Shown: positions 1 to 5,499 of the stretch, in pieces
How positions within the stretch are numbered: the stretch's first letter is position 1
How the letters are laid out: each line of letters opens with the position of its first letter
DNA from: a virus
Lineage: Duplodnaviria; Heunggongvirae; Uroviricota; Caudoviricetes
Reading direction: 5' to 3' (one strand)
IMG/VR virus record: IMGVR_UViG_3300029847_000110
Location: 1 to 5,499 of that record
Length of the DNA stretch: 5,499 nt
Notes under the pieces: model-generated
Seen by the model: the letters and a program-made list of their open reading frames with translations, nothing else
Databases searched by the model: none
What the model was told of the DNA's origin: nothing
Made by a program: the position numbers and the translations under genes

Positions 1-1
1 T

Positions 2-23
2 AAAGCCGCGCTCAGGCGGCTTT
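2..23. terminator. Stem-loop at the distal end of the leftward operon, overlapping the stop codon of the 12..380 gene; possible terminator truncated by the window edge
   Basis: Perfect 8-bp inverted repeat aaagccgc (2-9) / gcggcttt (16-23) with a 6-nt loop, seen directly. No complete U-tract is visible inside the window, so strand and function are uncertain. Confidence 0.3.
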
Positions 24-380
24 GATAGTCATATCATCTGAATCAAATATTCCTGATGTATCGATATCGGTAATTCTTATTCCTTCACTACCATCCATTG
101 GAGGCCATCCTTCCTGACCATTTCCATCATCCCAGTCGAACTCACAAACAACACCATATGCATTTAAGTCTTTCGAAATTGCTATAAGCAGAGCATGTTG
201 CGCCAGCATGATTAATACAGCATTTAATACAGCGCCGTGTTTATTGAGTCGGTATTCAGAGTCTGACCAGAAATTATTAATCTGGTGAAGTTTTTCCTCT
301 GTCATTACGTCATGGTCGATTTCAATTTCTATTGATGCTTTCCAGTCGTAATCAATGATGTATTTTTTGATGTTTGACAT
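12..380 (-). CDS. Hypothetical very acidic small protein (122 aa), distal gene of the leftward pL-type operon
   Basis: Intact ORF with ATG at 380 and GAGGA Shine-Dalgarno about 9 nt upstream. About 23 Asp/Glu versus about 9 Lys/Arg, with an acidic C-terminal third (EFDWDDGNGQEGWPPMDGSEGIRITDIDTSGIFDSDDM). No family recognised from memory; length and position resemble lambda ea10 but I cannot verify that sequence. Confidence 0.7.
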   Translation of the reverse strand: MSNIKKYIIDYDWKASIEIEIDHDVMTEEKLHQINNFWSDSEYRLNKHGAVLNAVLIMLAQHALLIAISKDLNAYGVVCEFDWDDGNGQEGWPPMDGSEGIRITDIDTSGIFDSDDMTIKAA

Positions 381-398
381 CTATTCATATCCTCATAG

Positions 399-426
399 AT
401 AAAAAATCGCCCTCACATTGGAGGGC
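399..426 (-). terminator. Rho-independent terminator (minus strand) immediately upstream of the 122-aa gene
   Basis: Stem gccctc (409-414) / gagggc (421-426) with a 6-nt loop; on the minus strand it is followed by GATTTTTTATC (plus-strand A-run 401-406). It sits about 20 nt upstream of the RBS of the 12..380 gene. Confidence 0.6.
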
Positions 427-488
427 AAAGAAGATTTCCAATAATCAGAACAAGTCGGCTCCTGTTTAGTTACGAGCGACATTGCTCC

Positions 489-516
489 GTGTATTCACTC
501 GTTGGAATGAATACAC
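489..516. repeat. Perfect 9-bp inverted repeat (gtgtattca / tgaatacac, 10-nt loop) in the intergenic gap between two terminators
   Basis: Seen directly. It lies in a ~115-bp non-coding stretch (429..544) with no convincing ORF; could be an RNA structure or a protein-binding palindrome. Confidence 0.5.
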
Positions 517-544
517 AGTGCAGTGTTTATTCTCTTGTTTATGC

Positions 545-570
545 CAAAAATAAAGGCCGAATATTCGGCT
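545..570 (-). terminator. Candidate rho-independent terminator (minus strand) directly after the 62-aa ORF stop
   Basis: Palindrome GCCGAATATTCGGC (556-569) followed on the minus strand by CTTTATTTTTGG. The stem is short with a tight loop, so confidence is moderate. Confidence 0.45.
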
Positions 571-759
571 TCATTCCTCAAACTTAATCTCTGCTATTTC
601 CCGGTCACCATCGCAAAACAGGTAAGATTCAGGGAACTGGTTTATAAATGAAATTATTCTTTCAATTTTAATTAGCGAATATTTCTGCTCTAATGGGTTA
701 TGCGGCTTAAACGAAGCACAGTCCAGAATCGCAGAATTGTATAAGATCCATTTGTGCAT
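571..759 (-). CDS. Hypothetical small protein (62 aa from ATG at 759; the track ORF uses a GTG at 771)
   Basis: ORF with a GGTGG Shine-Dalgarno-like motif 5 nt upstream of the ATG. It overlaps the 3' end of the upstream 285-aa gene by 53 nt in another frame, so it may be a genuine overlapping gene or spurious. Its stop abuts the terminator hairpin. Confidence 0.35.
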   Translation of the reverse strand: MHKWILYNSAILDCASFKPHNPLEQKYSLIKIERIISFINQFPESYLFCDGDREIAEIKFEE

Positions 760-1564
760 TTTTACCACCACTAGGTGTTAGTGGTGCCTCAGATAGTGGA
801 ACACCATATTTAGTAAGCCACAAATGAGGCCACTTCATTTGTATCTCTTTTTCATGCTGACATGCTCTTTCAAAATCAGATGGGACGTTATTTTTCATAT
901 AAAGCCACAGATCATCATCTCTGTTAGGGCACATCCAGCAAAGCGAGGCAGGTGGTGTAGGAAGACCATAATCCTCGACACATTGAATTGCCATCTGTTT
1001 AGTCATTAGCATTTCAATAAGTGGATAGCGCCTCTGCCACTTGCCAGTTGGGTATTTCGCTCTTCGTTTAGCCTCTTCAATGCTTATCCCCATCCAACTA
1101 TCCACTCCTCTTGCTGTAAGATACTTCTCTCCATATCTTTCATTTAAAAATCTCTGAATAACTTCAGTTTTCCACTTTATAGAACAAAATGCTGGTTGCT
1201 TTCCAGCGCACATTCCTTTTGAATCCCTTCCCTCGTATTCTGTGAAATATCCAGGTAGAGGAACGTCTGGATCAGGCCCATCAATGTCGTAGGTAGCAAA
1301 TCTACTTTTAGGAACAATCAGGTAATCAACACCCATATCTTCACAAATAGGAGCTATATATTTTTTCTGATATTCAAATACATTACTTGCCTCACGTTCT
1401 GTATCTGACATAACGATAATGTCAGGCTTTGGAAGAACGCCAGCATGTACTAAGCAGATTATTGCGTTACTTTGAGTACCACCACCGGAAGAAATAACAT
1501 TTAGTCTTTCTGGATTATGCTTGAATTCTCTTCTTGGTATGAATTTACTTGTAAATCCTGGCAT
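707..1564 (-). CDS. PAPS-reductase-like / PP-loop ATP pyrophosphatase superfamily protein (285 aa), likely with a C-terminal cysteine cluster
   Basis: Strong AAGGAG Shine-Dalgarno 6 nt upstream of ATG at 1564. N-terminal hydrophobic strand plus glycine-rich loop (LNVISSGGGTQS) resembles the SGGxDS PP-loop, followed by a strand and DTE...F motif (IIVMSDTEREASNVFEY) resembling the DTG..FPET motif of the PAPS reductase / DndC / SspD fold. Cysteines at CAGKQPAFC and CWMCPNRDD fit the Fe-S ligands of some family members. Assignment is by motif recall only. Confidence 0.75.
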   Translation of the reverse strand: MPGFTSKFIPRREFKHNPERLNVISSGGGTQSNAIICLVHAGVLPKPDIIVMSDTEREASNVFEYQKKYIAPICEDMGVDYLIVPKSRFATYDIDGPDPDVPLPGYFTEYEGRDSKGMCAGKQPAFCSIKWKTEVIQRFLNERYGEKYLTARGVDSWMGISIEEAKRRAKYPTGKWQRRYPLIEMLMTKQMAIQCVEDYGLPTPPASLCWMCPNRDDDLWLYMKNNVPSDFERACQHEKEIQMKWPHLWLTKYGVPLSEAPLTPSGGKNAQMDLIQFCDSGLCFV

Positions 1565-1565
1565 G

Positions 1566-1697
1566 TTATCTCCTTGTCTTTACAATTTGATAATCCTGAC
1601 CTGTTTGTTTAGCGTATTGCTCAGCCTGTTCTTTTGTTTTGAAAGAGTTTCCGCAAACCCATCTACCGCAACTTCTGTATTGAATTTGGTAGCTCAT
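1566..1697 (-). CDS. Small hypothetical protein (43 aa, MSYQIQYRSCGRWVCGNSFKTKEQAEQYAKQTGQDYQIVKTRR), translationally coupled to the downstream PAPS-reductase-like gene
   Basis: Not in the supplied ORF track (below its size cutoff). ATG at 1697 is preceded by GAGGGG inside the last codons of N. Its TAA stop (1568-1566) is 1 nt from the ATG of the next gene and its 3' end supplies that gene's AAGGAG RBS. Two cysteines in a C-x4-C arrangement. Confidence 0.45.
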   Translation of the reverse strand: MSYQIQYRSCGRWVCGNSFKTKEQAEQYAKQTGQDYQIVKTRR

Positions 1698-1700
1698 ATC

Positions 1701-2034
1701 TCACCCCTCATACAGTGGTTTGCTGCCTAATTTCATTTTCTGGCGACCAACACAAGTCACACCCATTTCACTGCGTGGCTTGCTGTACCATGTGCGCTGA
1801 TTCTTGCGCTCAATACGTTGCAGGTTGCTTTCAATCTGTTCGTGGTATTCAGCCAGCACCGTAAGGTCTATCGGATTCAGTGCGCTTTCTACTCGTGATT
1901 TCGGTTTGCGATTCAGCGAGAGAATAGGGCGGTTAACTGGTTTTGCGCTTACCCCAACCAACAGGGGATTTGCTGNNNNNNNNNNNNNNNNNNNNCTCTG
2001 CGCGACGTTCGCGGCGGCGTGTTTGTGCATCCAT
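1701..2034 (-). CDS. N: Lambda-type antitermination protein N (about 110 aa), interrupted by a 20-nt run of N
   Basis: Minus strand from 2034 reads ATGGATGCACAAACACGCCGCCGCGAACGTCGCGCAGAG = MDAQTRRRERRAE (the arginine-rich motif). After the gap the frame gives ANPLLVGVSAKPVNRPILSLNRKPKSRVESALNPIDLTVLAEYH...QRIERKNQRTWYSKP, matching my recollection of lambda N. The extreme C-terminus differs from what I recall for lambda. The start and track frames disagree by 1 nt across the N-run, so the gap length is not exact. Confidence 0.9.
1976..1995. other. Run of 20 ambiguous bases (assembly gap or masked bases) inside the N coding sequence
   Basis: Literal n characters in the sequence. The flanking frames imply about 18-19 real nucleotides are missing. 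Confidence 0.95.
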
Positions 2035-2192
2035 CTGGATTCTCCTGTCAGTTAGCTTTGGTGGTGTGTGGGAGTCGTAGTCCTGAACGAAAACACCCCG
2101 CGATTGGCGCATTGGCAGCTAATCCGGATTCGCACTTCCGGCCAATGCTTCGTTTCGTATCACACACCCCAAAGCCTTCTGCTTTGAATGCT

Positions 2193-2223
2193 GCCCTTCT
2201 TCAGGGCTTAATTTTTAAGAGCG
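2193..2223 (-). promoter_or_regulatory. nutL: nutL N-utilisation site (boxA CGCTCTTA, boxB GCCCTGAAGAAGGGC)
   Basis: Minus strand reads GACGCTCTTAAAAATTAAGCCCTGAAGAAGGGCAGC. boxB is a 5-bp stem with a GAAGA loop (plus 2193-2207) and boxA is at plus 2216-2223. Matches the lambda nutL sequence as I recall it, in the expected place between pL and N. Confidence 0.85.
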
Positions 2224-2254
2224 TCACCTTCATGGTGGTCAGTGCGTCCTGCTG

Positions 2255-2335
2255 ATGGCTTAAAATTACAAGAAAGATTGTATGCTGTAAACAAGAAATA
2301 TTGTAAAAATGGGCGTGAAAAACAAACTCCATTGT
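2255..2335 (-). promoter_or_regulatory. oL/pL: leftward early promoter with three 434-type operator sites
   Basis: Three 14-bp sites of form ACAAnnnnnnTTGT at 2268-2281 (acaagaaagattgt), 2291-2304 (acaagaaatattgt) and 2322-2335 (acaaactccattgt), the same family as the oR sites. Downstream on the minus strand the leader ATCAGCAGGACGCACTGACCACCATGAAGG matches the lambda pL leader from memory. Exact -10/-35 not assigned. Confidence 0.75.
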
Positions 2336-2385
2336 TTTTAAACGGAAAATAGTTTGTTTTTTGGTTGTCGAAATCGAGGTGAGGA

Positions 2386-3738
<1,353 letters not shown>

Positions 3739-3746
3739 GACATTCC

Positions 3747-3778
3747 CGCTCTTACACATCCCAGCCCTGAAAAAGGGC
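3747..3778 (+). promoter_or_regulatory. nutR: nutR N-utilisation site (boxA CGCTCTTA at 3747-3754, boxB GCCCTGAAAAAGGGC at 3764-3778)
   Basis: CGCTCTTACACATCCCAGCCCTGAAAAAGGGC directly after the cro stop. boxB is a 5-bp stem with a GAAAA loop. Matches lambda nutR as I recall it. Confidence 0.85.
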
Positions 3779-3784
3779 ATCAAA

Positions 3785-3835
3785 TTAAACCACACCTATG
3801 GTGTATGCATTTATTTGCATACATTCAATCAATTG
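3785..3835 (+). terminator. tR1-like rho-dependent terminator region between nutR and cII
   Basis: CCACACCTATGGTGTATGCATTTATTTGCATACATTCAATCAATTG matches the lambda tR1 / cII-leader sequence from memory and contains the ATGCA...TGCAT dyad. No intrinsic terminator structure, consistent with Rho dependence. Assigned by homology of position and sequence only. Confidence 0.4.
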
Positions 3836-3857
3836 TTATCTAAGGAAATACTTACAT

Positions 3858-4136
3858 ATGCAACTTACAAGTACTCGCAAGAAAGCGAATGCAATTACAA
3901 GCAACATCCTGAATCGAATTGCTGTACGTGGTCAGCGAAAGGTTGCTGACGCGTTAGGAATTAATGAATCGCAAATTTCGCGATGGAAAGACAGCTTCAT
4001 CCCAAAAATGGGAATGCTTCTGGCTGTTCTTGAATGGGGTGTTGAAGACGAGGAGTTGGCGGAACTGGCTAAGAAAGTAGCCAGAATGCTGACAAAAGAA
4101 AAAGCCCCGAAGAACGGCGAATTCTTCGAGGCCTGA
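3858..4136 (+). CDS. cII: cII-type transcriptional activator (92 aa), divergent from lambda cII
   Basis: ATG at 3858 preceded by the lambda-type leader TAAGGAAATACTTACAT. The protein shares with lambda cII the HTH block ...SQISRWK... and the motif IPKxxMLLAVLEWGV. N- and C-termini diverge from lambda. The track ORF 3798..4136 is an upstream extension. Confidence 0.85.
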   Translation: MQLTSTRKKANAITSNILNRIAVRGQRKVADALGINESQISRWKDSFIPKMGMLLAVLEWGVEDEELAELAKKVARMLTKEKAPKNGEFFEA

Positions 4137-4161
4137 TGTAGAAAGACTGGATCAATCCACA
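4095..4161 (-). ncRNA. Candidate oop-like antisense RNA overlapping the 3' end of cII
   Basis: Minus-strand intrinsic terminator inside the cII 3' coding region: stem CGAAGAA (plus 4108-4114) / TTCTTCG (4122-4128) with a 7-nt loop, followed by GGGCTTTTTCTTTTG. A candidate extended -10 TGTCATAAT lies on the minus strand at about 4176-4168, placing the 5' end about 25 nt beyond the cII stop, as for lambda oop. No good -35. Boundaries are approximate. Confidence 0.35.
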
Positions 4162-4170
4162 GGAGTAATT

Positions 4171-4332
4171 ATGACAAAACGTCGTAAGAAATACCAGGAA
4201 AAAGAAGAGATTCGACACCCTGATTCACCTGAGGGATTAGTGGTAGCCGCAGCAAATAACAGGGCGTTCGCAGAGCGCCTTGTTGGTGTTTACAGACTAG
4301 CCAAAGCAGGAGTGAAACATGGGCGTCGTTAA
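4171..4332 (+). CDS. Small basic hypothetical protein (53 aa, MTKRRKKYQEKEEIRHPDSPEGLVVAAANNRAFAERLVGVYRLAKAGVKHGRR) between cII and the replication gene
   Basis: Not in the supplied track (below its size cutoff). AGGAG Shine-Dalgarno 5 nt upstream of ATG 4171. The stop overlaps the first codons of the O-like gene by 14 nt. Confidence 0.45.
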   Translation: MTKRRKKYQEKEEIRHPDSPEGLVVAAANNRAFAERLVGVYRLAKAGVKHGRR

Positions 4333-5209
4333 GTTAGCTGATTACAGGCATAACCCTGTACAACATCAGGAGGCATCCAGTATGGGGTATGTCTCTATAC
4401 ACCGCCAGTTTATGGACAGCAGGCTCTATAAGGACTCTCAGGCAGTACATCTTTGGCTTCACTTAATCCTCAAGGCTAATCACGAATCTACTGTCGTCAA
4501 TACGGATATCGGTCCGATAACTGTTGATCGCGGTCAGATGATAACTGGACGCCCGTCGCTGGTCAGAGAAACATTCATCCCCGACAACAAAGTTCGGAGC
4601 TTATTACGGACTTTTGAGTCGAAAGGGATGCTTAATATTTGCTCGATGGGGAAGAAATTTAGCCTGTTTACAATCGTTAAATATGATGATTTTCAGGCAA
4701 AAAATTGTCCAACGGTTGTCCAACGGTTGTCCAACGCAAACACCAGTAATGGCGCGGCTCTCAGCGGAGATTGTCCAACGGTTGTCCAACGGTTGTCCAT
4801 AAACAATAATATAAATAATATCTCTAATACTGACGTATTAGAGAGTGCCACAGCAGACAAAAAGTCTGACAAGAAAAAACCTTCCGTTAGCTGTCAGGAT
4901 GTTGTCGATGCTTACCACGAAATCCTTCCTGAAGCGCCAAGAATCCGCGCACTGAATGACAAGCGTAAAAACCAGATCCGAACGTTCTGGCGCAAAGCCG
5001 GAGTGATAACCCGCCAGCTTGACGGGCATGGGTTCACGATGCAGGACTGGAGAAATTATTTGAGCTACGTAGGCGAAAATTGCCGATGGATGTTCGAAGA
5101 GCGCCCAAACCATCAACGCGGAACCGTCTGGCACAAAAAGGGATTTGATTTCCTGCTTAACGATAATACCTACCTGAAAGTTCGTGAGGGTGAACACGAT
5201 GACCGATAA
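4319..5209 (+). CDS. Replication initiator protein (lambda O functional analogue, 296 aa) with the origin embedded in its coding sequence
   Basis: Long ORF directly upstream of a DnaB-type helicase gene with overlapping stop/start. It contains two clusters of 11-bp iterons and an adjacent AT-rich palindrome mid-gene, the hallmark of lambdoid O genes. AGGAG RBS before ATG 4319; an alternative start at ATG 4382 (AGGAGG 8 nt upstream) cannot be excluded. Not lambda O by sequence. Confidence 0.85.
   Translation: MGVVKLADYRHNPVQHQEASSMGYVSIHRQFMDSRLYKDSQAVHLWLHLILKANHESTVVNTDIGPITVDRGQMITGRPSLVRETFIPDNKVRSLLRTFESKGMLNICSMGKKFSLFTIVKYDDFQAKNCPTVVQRLSNANTSNGAALSGDCPTVVQRLSINNNINNISNTDVLESATADKKSDKKKPSVSCQDVVDAYHEILPEAPRIRALNDKRKNQIRTFWRKAGVITRQLDGHGFTMQDWRNYLSYVGENCRWMFEERPNHQRGTVWHKKGFDFLLNDNTYLKVREGEHDDR
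4705..4800. repeat. Origin iterons: two clusters of tandem 11-bp direct repeats TTGTCCAACGG (4705-4737, three copies; 4771-4800, about 2.7 copies) separated by 33 bp
   Basis: Seen directly: ttgtccaacggttgtccaacggttgtccaacgc ... ttgtccaacggttgtccaacggttgtccat. The period is about one helical turn. In frame they encode the repeated peptide CPTVVQRLS. Confidence 0.9.
4801..4844. other. AT-rich stretch plus perfect 10-bp inverted repeat adjacent to the iterons (candidate DNA-unwinding element of ori)
   Basis: aaacaataatataaataata (4801-4820) is nearly pure A/T. It is followed by tctctaatac (4821-4830) / gtattagaga (4835-4844), a perfect inverted repeat with a 4-nt spacer. Confidence 0.7.
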
Positions 5210-5499
5210 TTTTTATGCGCCGCCCCATAGCATCGAGGCAGAGCAGGCGGTGATTGGTGGATTGCTTCTGGATGATGACAGCAGTGAGCGCGTCCAGAAA
5301 GTTCTGGCGATGCTGAAGCCTGATTCATTTTACAGCCGGCCACACAAAATCCTTTTCGAAGAAATAACCAGAATGCACCGGGAGCAAAAGCCAGTAGATG
5401 GCCTGACGCTTTTCGATGAACTGGAGCGTAAATCGTTAACTGTGTCTGTTGGCGGTTTTGCTTATATCGCTGAGATCGCAAAGAACACGCCAAGCGCCG
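5199..5499 (+). CDS. DnaB-family replicative DNA helicase, N-terminal part (continues beyond the window)
   Basis: ATG at 5199 overlaps the O-like stop by 11 nt, with GAGGG 8 nt upstream. Translation MTDNFYAPPHSIEAEQAVIGGLLLDDDSSERVQKV...SFYSRPHKILFEEITRMHREQKPVDGLTLFDELERKSLTVSVGGFAYIAEIAKNTPSA matches the conserved DnaB N-terminal domain (E. coli DnaB: PPHSIEAEQSVLGG...DFYTRPHRHIF...VGGFAYLAELSKNTPSA). Absent from the supplied track because the ORF is open at the window edge. Confidence 0.9.
   Translation, partial: MTDNFYAPPHSIEAEQAVIGGLLLDDDSSERVQKVLAMLKPDSFYSRPHKILFEEITRMHREQKPVDGLTLFDELERKSLTVSVGGFAYIAEIAKNTPSA

Follow-up and report, generated by a model that had tools for sequence, protein, structure and literature searches.

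The 5,499 nucleotides analysed in this study, which are positions 1 to 5,499 of the IMG/VR virus record IMGVR_UViG_3300029847_000110 and are called the window hereafter, contain a lambda-like prophage immunity and early region. On its minus strand, a gene for a 285-amino-acid enzyme (707-1564) lies between two small genes, and the ORF (open reading frame) list, profile searches and a structural model describe its product as NinC-like and SspD-like, with a PAPS-reductase fold. Directly upstream, the ORF list gives a 43-amino-acid ORF (1566-1697, minus strand), and downstream lies a third small gene (571-759, minus strand), whose product has 62 amino acids when read from the ATG at 759 or 66 when read from the GTG at 771. 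The antiterminator gene N (1701-2030, minus strand), which was recognised by Pfam N36 (E 8e-9) and is labelled N in the matching phage records, precedes all three, and an intrinsic-terminator-like hairpin, GCCGAATATTCGGC with a T-run (546-569, minus strand), was found by the terminator scan directly 3' of them. The genes are closely packed, with 3 nucleotides between the stop codon of N and the ATG of the 43-amino-acid ORF and 1 nucleotide between the TAA of that ORF and the ATG of the enzyme gene. The original prediction, which was made from the sequence before this analysis, had described the two ORFs after N with the 1-nucleotide gap and had assigned the ribosome-binding site of the enzyme to the small ORF; both were found as described, an AAGGAG Shine-Dalgarno sequence being located in the final codons of the small ORF.

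The enzyme contains the motifs SSGGGTQS (residues 25-32), DTE (54-56) and CWMC (209-212), followed by a C-terminal cysteine pair, C278-x4-C283. The first three had been named in advance, as had a C-x4-C motif in the small ORF, and all are present. The CxxC motif, however, had been described as C-terminal, whereas it occupies residues 209-212 of 285 and the true C-terminal pair is C278-x4-C283. A match to PF01507 had also been proposed as a check, and the Pfam search with the window enzyme gave zero matches at E<=1; 4 of 39 homologues matched PF01507, the best with an E-value of 0.002. As the NCBIfam search with the enzyme likewise gave zero matches, the placement had to use PHROGs, PADLOC, hhalign and fold comparison.

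These comparisons agreed with the PP-loop/PAPS-reductase superfamily that had been predicted. The phrog_424 'PAPS reductase' profile matched the enzyme over residues 11-284 (E 4.7e-35), and lambda NinC also falls in phrog_424 (E 1.2e-89). When the family alignment (A1) was compared with lambda NinC by hhalign, the match reached a probability of 97.2% with an E-value of 3.9e-11 over 201 columns at approximately 21% identity, and the motifs of NinC and the family were paired as SFSGGRTS/SSGGGTQS, DTGCE/DTERE, FCTDRLK/FCSIKWK, WIGIRADEPKR/WMGISIEEAKR and CIFC/CWMC. The PADLOC profile of SspD (PDLC02782) matched the window enzyme (E 3.1e-7), 39 of the 39 aligned homologues (best E 8e-21) and lambda NinC (E 1.8e-14). 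At E<=0.1, the DndC profile matched none of the 39 family members, and the BrxP profile matched one.

The AlphaFold2 model of the enzyme, built from the 39 homologues, had a predicted local distance difference test score (pLDDT) of 90.6, with the last 14 residues or so not confident, and its best fold match among viral models was a phage 'PAPS reductase' (E 4.5e-12). The model has the Rossmann-like alpha/beta/alpha fold of the adenine-nucleotide alpha-hydrolase superfamily, which is shared by PAPS reductase, TtuA and GMP synthase, and the SSGGGTQS loop is placed as expected, after strand 1, with G27, G29 and Q31 invariant. The superfamily assignment of the enzyme is thus sound, and the 285-amino-acid protein is very probably a diverged, stand-alone member of the NinC clan (PHROG 424) with a single adenine-nucleotide alpha-hydrolase/PAPS-reductase domain. 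It is also well supported that its nearest named relative is NinC and its nearest defence-system protein SspD. The sole PDB sequence match to the family profile was a marginal one (E 0.006) to chain C of 21fy ('PptA', 270 amino acids), spanning the FC..K to C..C region; this entry may represent the first close relative with a solved structure, and the literature search found no PptA paper.

Concerning conservation, the residues that stayed invariant even where identity fell to 30% were G27, G29, Q31, T55, E58, C127, K132, W157, G159, E164, R168, P181, L182, P204, P205, S207, C209, C212, P213, C278, G281 and C283. They include five cysteines (C127, C209, C212, C278 and C283), of which the last two lie on a flexible C-terminal tail. 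The motifs follow each other as a phosphate loop, a DTG-like motif, a cysteine and then a basic residue, the CxxC motif and the tail cysteines, an order also known from Fe-S APS reductases and DndC, and C127, C209 and C212, which form a C...CxxC type, have the order expected for an Fe-S site. Comparison with a homologous module (L046, approximately 83% nucleotide identity) gave a ratio of non-synonymous to synonymous substitution rates (dN/dS) of 0.027 for the enzyme gene and of 0.015 for the 43-amino-acid ORF (16 synonymous and 3 non-synonymous differences), indicating that both are real genes under strong purifying selection and not chance ORFs. Since the motif residues and the five cysteines are invariant to 30% identity and the dN/dS value is 0.027, the enzyme is likely to be catalytically active.

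The family is widespread. A full scan covering 1.84 billion representatives yielded 1796 clusters at 50% identity with E<=1e-30 and 4442 clusters with E<=1e-10, and its hosts are spread over many phyla. Nearly all members have 240-290 amino acids, and this is therefore a large family of bare single-domain proteins. We gathered 121 loci, 117 of them with a complete gene, representing 69 lineages at 90% enzyme identity. The family occupies early or accessory parts of numerous temperate phage genomes. In lambdoid pL operons, the enzyme gene was located directly after N or 5 kilobases on, beside int. Elsewhere, a P2-like Vibrio prophage carries it immediately ahead of gpA, Orbus has it behind a C5-methyltransferase gene, and in Serratia it lies close to HTH_ParB and ParE-like genes; a D3-like Pseudomonas phage also has it, and a distant relative (hit H59) is found beside the replication gene of the 17-kilobase Thermus phage P23-77. 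A distant relative was also noticed in a 5.5-kilobase, microvirus-sized Sigmofec virus record (hit H68, E 2e-4). A dispensable metabolic role is difficult to reconcile with this occurrence in such small viral genomes. Two further enzymes, in assemblies of Chryseobacterium sp. (L013) and Pseudomonas lundensis (L017), were 74-75% identical to that of E. coli and had Serratia-like prophage contexts; the presence of such prophage enzymes in assemblies of unrelated genera suggests that these assemblies are contaminated or mislabelled.

To look at the surroundings of the enzyme gene, all ORFs within 4 kilobases on either side were clustered for the 117 loci in 69 lineages. No conserved partner gene was found, the top recurring clusters being shadow ORFs antisense to the enzyme gene, which agrees with the earlier description of a lone enzyme. 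The most shared neighbours among the 69 lineages were integrase (7), SSB (7), cI (6) and a Dam-type methyltransferase (6); the latter was directly upstream of the enzyme gene in its 6 lineages, and other methyltransferases were present in several more. A link to IbrA and ParB-type proteins, which had also been raised, was confined to the Serratia-type lineage, in which an HTH_ParB gene lies two genes upstream. In an E. coli prophage carrying the module (L001), the slot between ninB and ninE is occupied by a phage N6-adenine Dam methyltransferase gene (18745-19272), and the same slot of lambda (L126, 8082-8954) holds NinC. A NinC-type enzyme and a Dam methyltransferase appear able to replace each other at this slot.

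The 43-amino-acid gene has a history of its own. Its well-conserved family comprised 20 clusters in 5.8 billion proteins and had the signature YQIQYR..G.W.NGN.F.T...A..YA..T..DYQI, with Q6, Y7, R8, G11, W13, G16, N17, A25, A29, D35 and Y36 invariant, and the AlphaFold2 model showed a beta-beta-alpha-beta arrangement (pLDDT 88.7). Weak Pfam matches of the ORF, to NDUS4 and others, were below threshold. The window variant has C10-x4-C15, and these two cysteines had been presented as a feature of the peptide; Cys10, however, was shared by the window variant and P0250 alone, and Cys15 by these two and P0257, while position 10 was N, G, H or F and position 15 was N in the other aligned clusters. 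The C-x4-C arrangement, which is restricted to variants of the E. coli type, was thus rejected as a metal or redox motif, the cysteines being missing from nearly all homologues.

The view of the 43-amino-acid gene and the enzyme gene as a two-gene cassette did not hold either. By tblastn and profile hidden Markov model (HMM), the small gene neighboured the enzyme gene in only 2 of the 69 lineages and in close variants of both. Most other members of its family lie in lytic podoviruses, in the early regions of 44-46-kilobase Autographiviridae phages of Pantoea, Erwinia, Klebsiella, Pectobacterium and Edwardsiella, and one homologue was in a plasmid-like element; no enzyme gene was found near the Autographiviridae or plasmid-like homologues. 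The lineage with an enzyme 80% identical to that of the window (L005) has kept the small gene, whereas the loci L004 and L011, with enzymes 84% identical to it, have neither small gene and carry the enzyme gene 5 kilobases from N. Based on this evidence, the pairing tracks the N-proximal position in some lambdoid phages and not a need of the enzyme. The RefSeq PGAP annotation and the metagenome gene callers missed the 43-amino-acid gene in L001 (13010-13138) and in L131 and L132 (2563-2694), where its sequence is identical; it is a systematically missed small gene.

The third small gene, 571-759, had been missed in the original inventory of the cassette. Read in a different frame, it shares sequence with the final 17 codons of the enzyme gene, and 1 nucleotide separates its end from the terminator hairpin. 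Over its 45 non-overlapping codons, comparison with L046 gave a dN of 0.12 and a dS of 1.13, whereas dN exceeded dS in the other two frames, and the gene is under purifying selection. Its 62-amino-acid product was also called independently in P0269, and in the L005 lineage the third gene encodes 46 amino acids, starting at an ATGA overlap with the stop codon of the enzyme gene. The family of this gene consisted of 4 clusters and was found only directly downstream of the enzyme. In the E. coli prophages L131 and L132, other sequence has taken the place of the body of the third gene beyond 'HNPL', with no change in the enzyme. Both flanking small genes are therefore real, and they are lineage-specific companions of the N-proximal position, not required partners of the enzyme.

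These genes belong to a block of approximately 1.4 kilobases common to other E. coli prophages, which extends over window positions 387-1787 or so, starts with the 3' end of N and reaches as far as a second terminator-like hairpin (428-407), includes the hairpin GCCGAATATTCGGC, and sits behind different N types. The module is rare in E. coli, since at least 80% of it was present in 2 of 5,426 complete genomes, and in deposited phage genomes it was found in none at the nucleotide level.

As for transcription, the first good terminator that the scan returned after the pL-side genes was at 569-556, beyond the three genes. For this reason, the layout points to one unit transcribed with N from pL, in the order pL, nutL, N, 43-amino-acid gene, enzyme, 62-amino-acid gene and terminator, and to the enzyme as an immediate-early product, with synthesis expected as soon as infection or induction begins. 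The boxB hairpin of nutL, gccctgaagaagggc on the minus strand (2193-2207), was read from the sequence and also flagged in the hairpin scan, and we take it to match that of lambda nutL. Within the N gene itself, 20 masked N bases at 1976-1995 leave its product not fully readable.

Beyond this unit, the minus strand carries cI (2787-3419, by sequence and ORF reading) and, at the other end of the window, a DUF2528 gene (12-380); the plus strand carries cro and cII as well as an iteron-containing O-type replication gene and the beginning of a gene for a DnaB-type helicase. Repeated tgtccaacggttgtccaacg units at 4706-4740 and 4772-4800 (plus strand) within the O-type replication gene resemble origin iterons. 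A gene of approximately 134 codons (2386-2790, minus strand) matched phrog_2651 (E 6.9e-59), has a signal-peptide-like N-terminus and occupies the place of rexAB in lambda; as an ATGA overlap joins its start to the stop codon of cI, it is probably expressed in the lysogen. Further, the stretch 395-580 (minus strand), which spans the hairpins 569-556 and 428-407 and is part of the 1.4-kilobase block common to prophages, has an unusually stable RNA fold (z -5.56) that includes a perfect hairpin of 14 bp. It might represent either a group of terminators or a small RNA, and an Rfam search of the window, this stretch included, gave zero matches.

Concerning the function of the enzyme, nucleic-acid modification or anti-restriction is plausible. 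In the mechanism that we propose, the SSGGGTQS loop and the DTE motif would bind ATP or an adenylate, and C127, C209 and C212 would coordinate a [4Fe-4S] cluster in which one iron is left free, as it is in DndC and TtuA. C278 and C283 on the disordered tail would shuttle sulfur or reducing equivalents into this site, in the manner of the C-terminal cysteine of PAPS reductase. Both the three-cysteine cluster and the shuttling tail were deduced from the motif order, which is that of Fe-S APS reductases and DndC. A nucleic-acid substrate, most likely the phage DNA, would be activated with ATP and would then receive the sulfur, and the resulting mark might protect the phage from modification-dependent host defences or blind them. 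The DNA-modification step is suggested indirectly, by the affinity to SspD and by the adjacency, fusion and allelic replacement involving Dam methyltransferases. It is also suggested by two reports: in a Vibrio podovirus, a fusion of a PAPS domain to Dam, together with one neighbouring gene, is reported to bring about escape from the host Dnd system (bioRxiv 10.1101/2021.05.05.442762), and PAPS reductases occur in Aca-regulated anti-defence operons (PMC13551039). As a whole, a NinC-clan enzyme in the N/pL unit that uses ATP for sulfur transfer to nucleic acid is our best explanation, which may well be right but is put forward tentatively; the specific mechanism of sulfur placed on DNA is more doubtful.

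Several points weigh against this explanation. The SSGGGTQS loop deviates from the canonical SGGxDS PP-loop, and ATP pyrophosphatase chemistry should not be assumed, because the canonical Asp is replaced. The SspD profile PDLC02782 has no curated cut-off and spans just residues 120-252 of the window protein, and the Fe-S and sulfur-transfer assignment was drawn from motif order and fold rather than from an explicit alignment with DndC or APS reductase, so that it should be read as putative. SspD and DndC need partners (SspB/C and DndD/E, respectively), and none is linked to the enzyme here. The association with methyltransferases was seen in approximately 12 of 69 lineages and may merely reflect the abundance of methyltransferases in phage early regions. 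Regarding the timing of expression, the scan also flagged a weak terminator site within the enzyme gene (1207-1191). To our knowledge, neither this subfamily nor lambda NinC has been characterised by biochemistry or genetics.

Other explanations of the same data were considered. The enzyme might be a CysH-type PAPS/APS reductase, an auxiliary metabolic gene that boosts host assimilatory sulfate reduction in infection or lysogeny. We regard this as very unlikely, since neither Pfam PAPS_reduct nor NCBIfam recognised the window protein, as described above, and the SspD profile fits it far better; in addition, instead of metabolic genes its neighbours are early genes for regulation, replication, recombination and methyltransferases, homologues occur in very small genomes such as that of P23-77, and E. 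coli has its own cysH. Alternatively, the enzyme might use ATP to modify RNA or free nucleotides instead of DNA, for example as a TtuA/NcsA-like tRNA thiolase or a PP-loop-type tRNA editor, and so tune translation or shield tRNAs from host anticodon nucleases. The protein, however, is a bare 285-amino-acid domain without TtuA-type zinc fingers or RNA-binding extensions, the profiles favour SspD, NinC, BrxP and DndC over tRNA enzymes, and the recurrent neighbours and fusions are DNA methyltransferases; an RNA substrate is therefore improbable. A decoy that has no catalytic activity and titrates the partner proteins of host Dnd or Ssp systems (or IscS), disabling phosphorothioate-based defence, would fit an SspD-like protein without partners of its own, and a phage PAPS-domain protein has been tied to Dnd escape (bioRxiv 10.1101/2021.05.05.442762). 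Nevertheless, the nucleotide-binding and cysteine motifs are invariant to 30% identity, as expected of an active enzyme, and the family is found in hosts of many phyla, the majority of which are unlikely to carry one given target system, which makes a decoy highly improbable.

The small genes bear on a further alternative, in which the 43-amino-acid protein, the enzyme and the 62-amino-acid protein form one system and the small proteins act as recognition, regulatory or sulfur-relay subunits in place of SspB/C or DndD/E. The tight packing, with the 1-nucleotide gap upstream and the overlapping gene downstream, the purifying selection on all three genes and the restriction of the downstream gene to the neighbourhood of the enzyme are in line with such a system. 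The 43-amino-acid gene and the enzyme are also kept together behind different N types, and the trio recurs in two diverged lineages (identity of 80% for the enzyme, 56% for the 43-amino-acid protein and 67-69% for the downstream product). By profile HMMs, however, neither small gene was detectable in 67 of the 69 enzyme lineages, including L004 and L011 with their 84%-identical enzymes; the 43-amino-acid family resides mostly in podoviruses and one plasmid-like element that have no enzyme gene, its cysteines are not conserved, and the body of the downstream gene was swapped in L131 and L132 with the enzyme unchanged. These data make a three-gene system unlikely. The most novel possibility would be a self-sufficient, one-protein writer of a DNA sulfur mark (phosphorothioate or thio-base) that needs only housekeeping IscS and ATP. 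Such a writer would be made with N at the first moment of infection, and the phage DNA would escape or blind modification-sensing defences; this bolder version of our preferred explanation, ATP-using sulfur transfer to nucleic acid, also seems unlikely to us.

The locus is of interest beyond this prophage. PAPS-reductase-like genes rank among the most frequently reported viral auxiliary metabolic genes (cysH), with ecological conclusions drawn from them (PMC13369170). Lambda NinC is the founding phage example of these viral 'cysH' genes, with its function unsolved, and the locus described here represents, in E. coli, a large subfamily that Pfam fails to recognise. The affinity to SspD and the regulatory, replication and DNA-methylation neighbours argue for an anti-defence or nucleic-acid function rather than the metabolic label. 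If the self-sufficient writer were true, the NinC clan as a whole, with many of those 'viral cysH' genes that are counted as metabolic in viromes, would be a DNA-modification or anti-defence family. As the gene lies in a lambda-type pL operon in E. coli, these ideas are directly testable by standard lambda genetics. The value of the locus is thus a tractable E. coli/lambda handle on NinC-type 'viral cysH' genes, and it is a caution against counting such genes as sulfur metabolism, a label that is usually given to them in error.

Among known proteins, the enzyme can first be compared with lambda NinC (orf290 of the nin region), which is likewise phage-borne, single-domain and approximately 285-290 amino acids in length, belongs to PHROG 424 and matches the SspD profile. 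The two differ in position, NinC lying between ninB and ninD in the nin region on the pR side and the window enzyme in the pL operon after N, and in the loop, which is SFSGGRTS in NinC and SSGGGTQS in the window family. Moreover, NinC weakly matches the BrxP and DndC profiles and APS reductase sequences, whereas the window protein matches none of them.

SspD is the sulfur-inserting ATP pyrophosphatase of Ssp DNA phosphorothioation. In the SspABCD-E system, it shares the PAPS-reductase-like fold with the enzyme, and its profile was the best-matching defence profile for 39 of the 39 members. In contrast to SspD, the window enzyme is phage-borne and stands alone: the window has no sspA (cysteine desulfurase), sspB (nickase), sspC (ATPase) or sspE, and no ssp genes recurred within 4 kilobases on either side in the 69 lineages. 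DndC of the Dnd system and BrxP of BREX type 4 belong to the same superfamily, and the three conserved cysteines suggest, by analogy, a DndC-like Fe-S site. The profiles of DndC and BrxP have 468-779 positions, however, and the window enzyme is much shorter and has no conserved dndD, dndE or brx neighbours in the 69 lineages.

CysH, with its Cys-Cys pair and C-terminal ECGLH, is more remote, as the window enzyme has one cysteine in place of the pair and ends in FCDSGxCFV, fails both PF01507 and NCBIfam, and is set in a phage early region; by the family threshold, the window gene is not a PF01507 member. The IbrA-IbrB pair differs in that the window has no ParB-like gene and in that the enzyme is single-domain, without a DUF3440-type C-terminal extension. 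Because the defining partner genes are absent, the window gene is not a component of Ssp, Dnd or IbrAB. The p0018 protein of Vibrio podovirus 44E38.1, the anti-Dnd fusion of a PAPS domain and Dam, shares with the enzyme family a phage PAPS-type domain and a link to Dam, and the likeness is one of domain type and setting. It is, however, a 479-amino-acid fusion with a PAPS domain recognised by Pfam, while the window enzyme is unfused and has no methyltransferase gene in the window. The enzyme is a diverged addition to the known, functionally unsolved NinC/PHROG 424 clan, and the kind of system itself is not new; on present evidence, it would work most like SspD or DndC.

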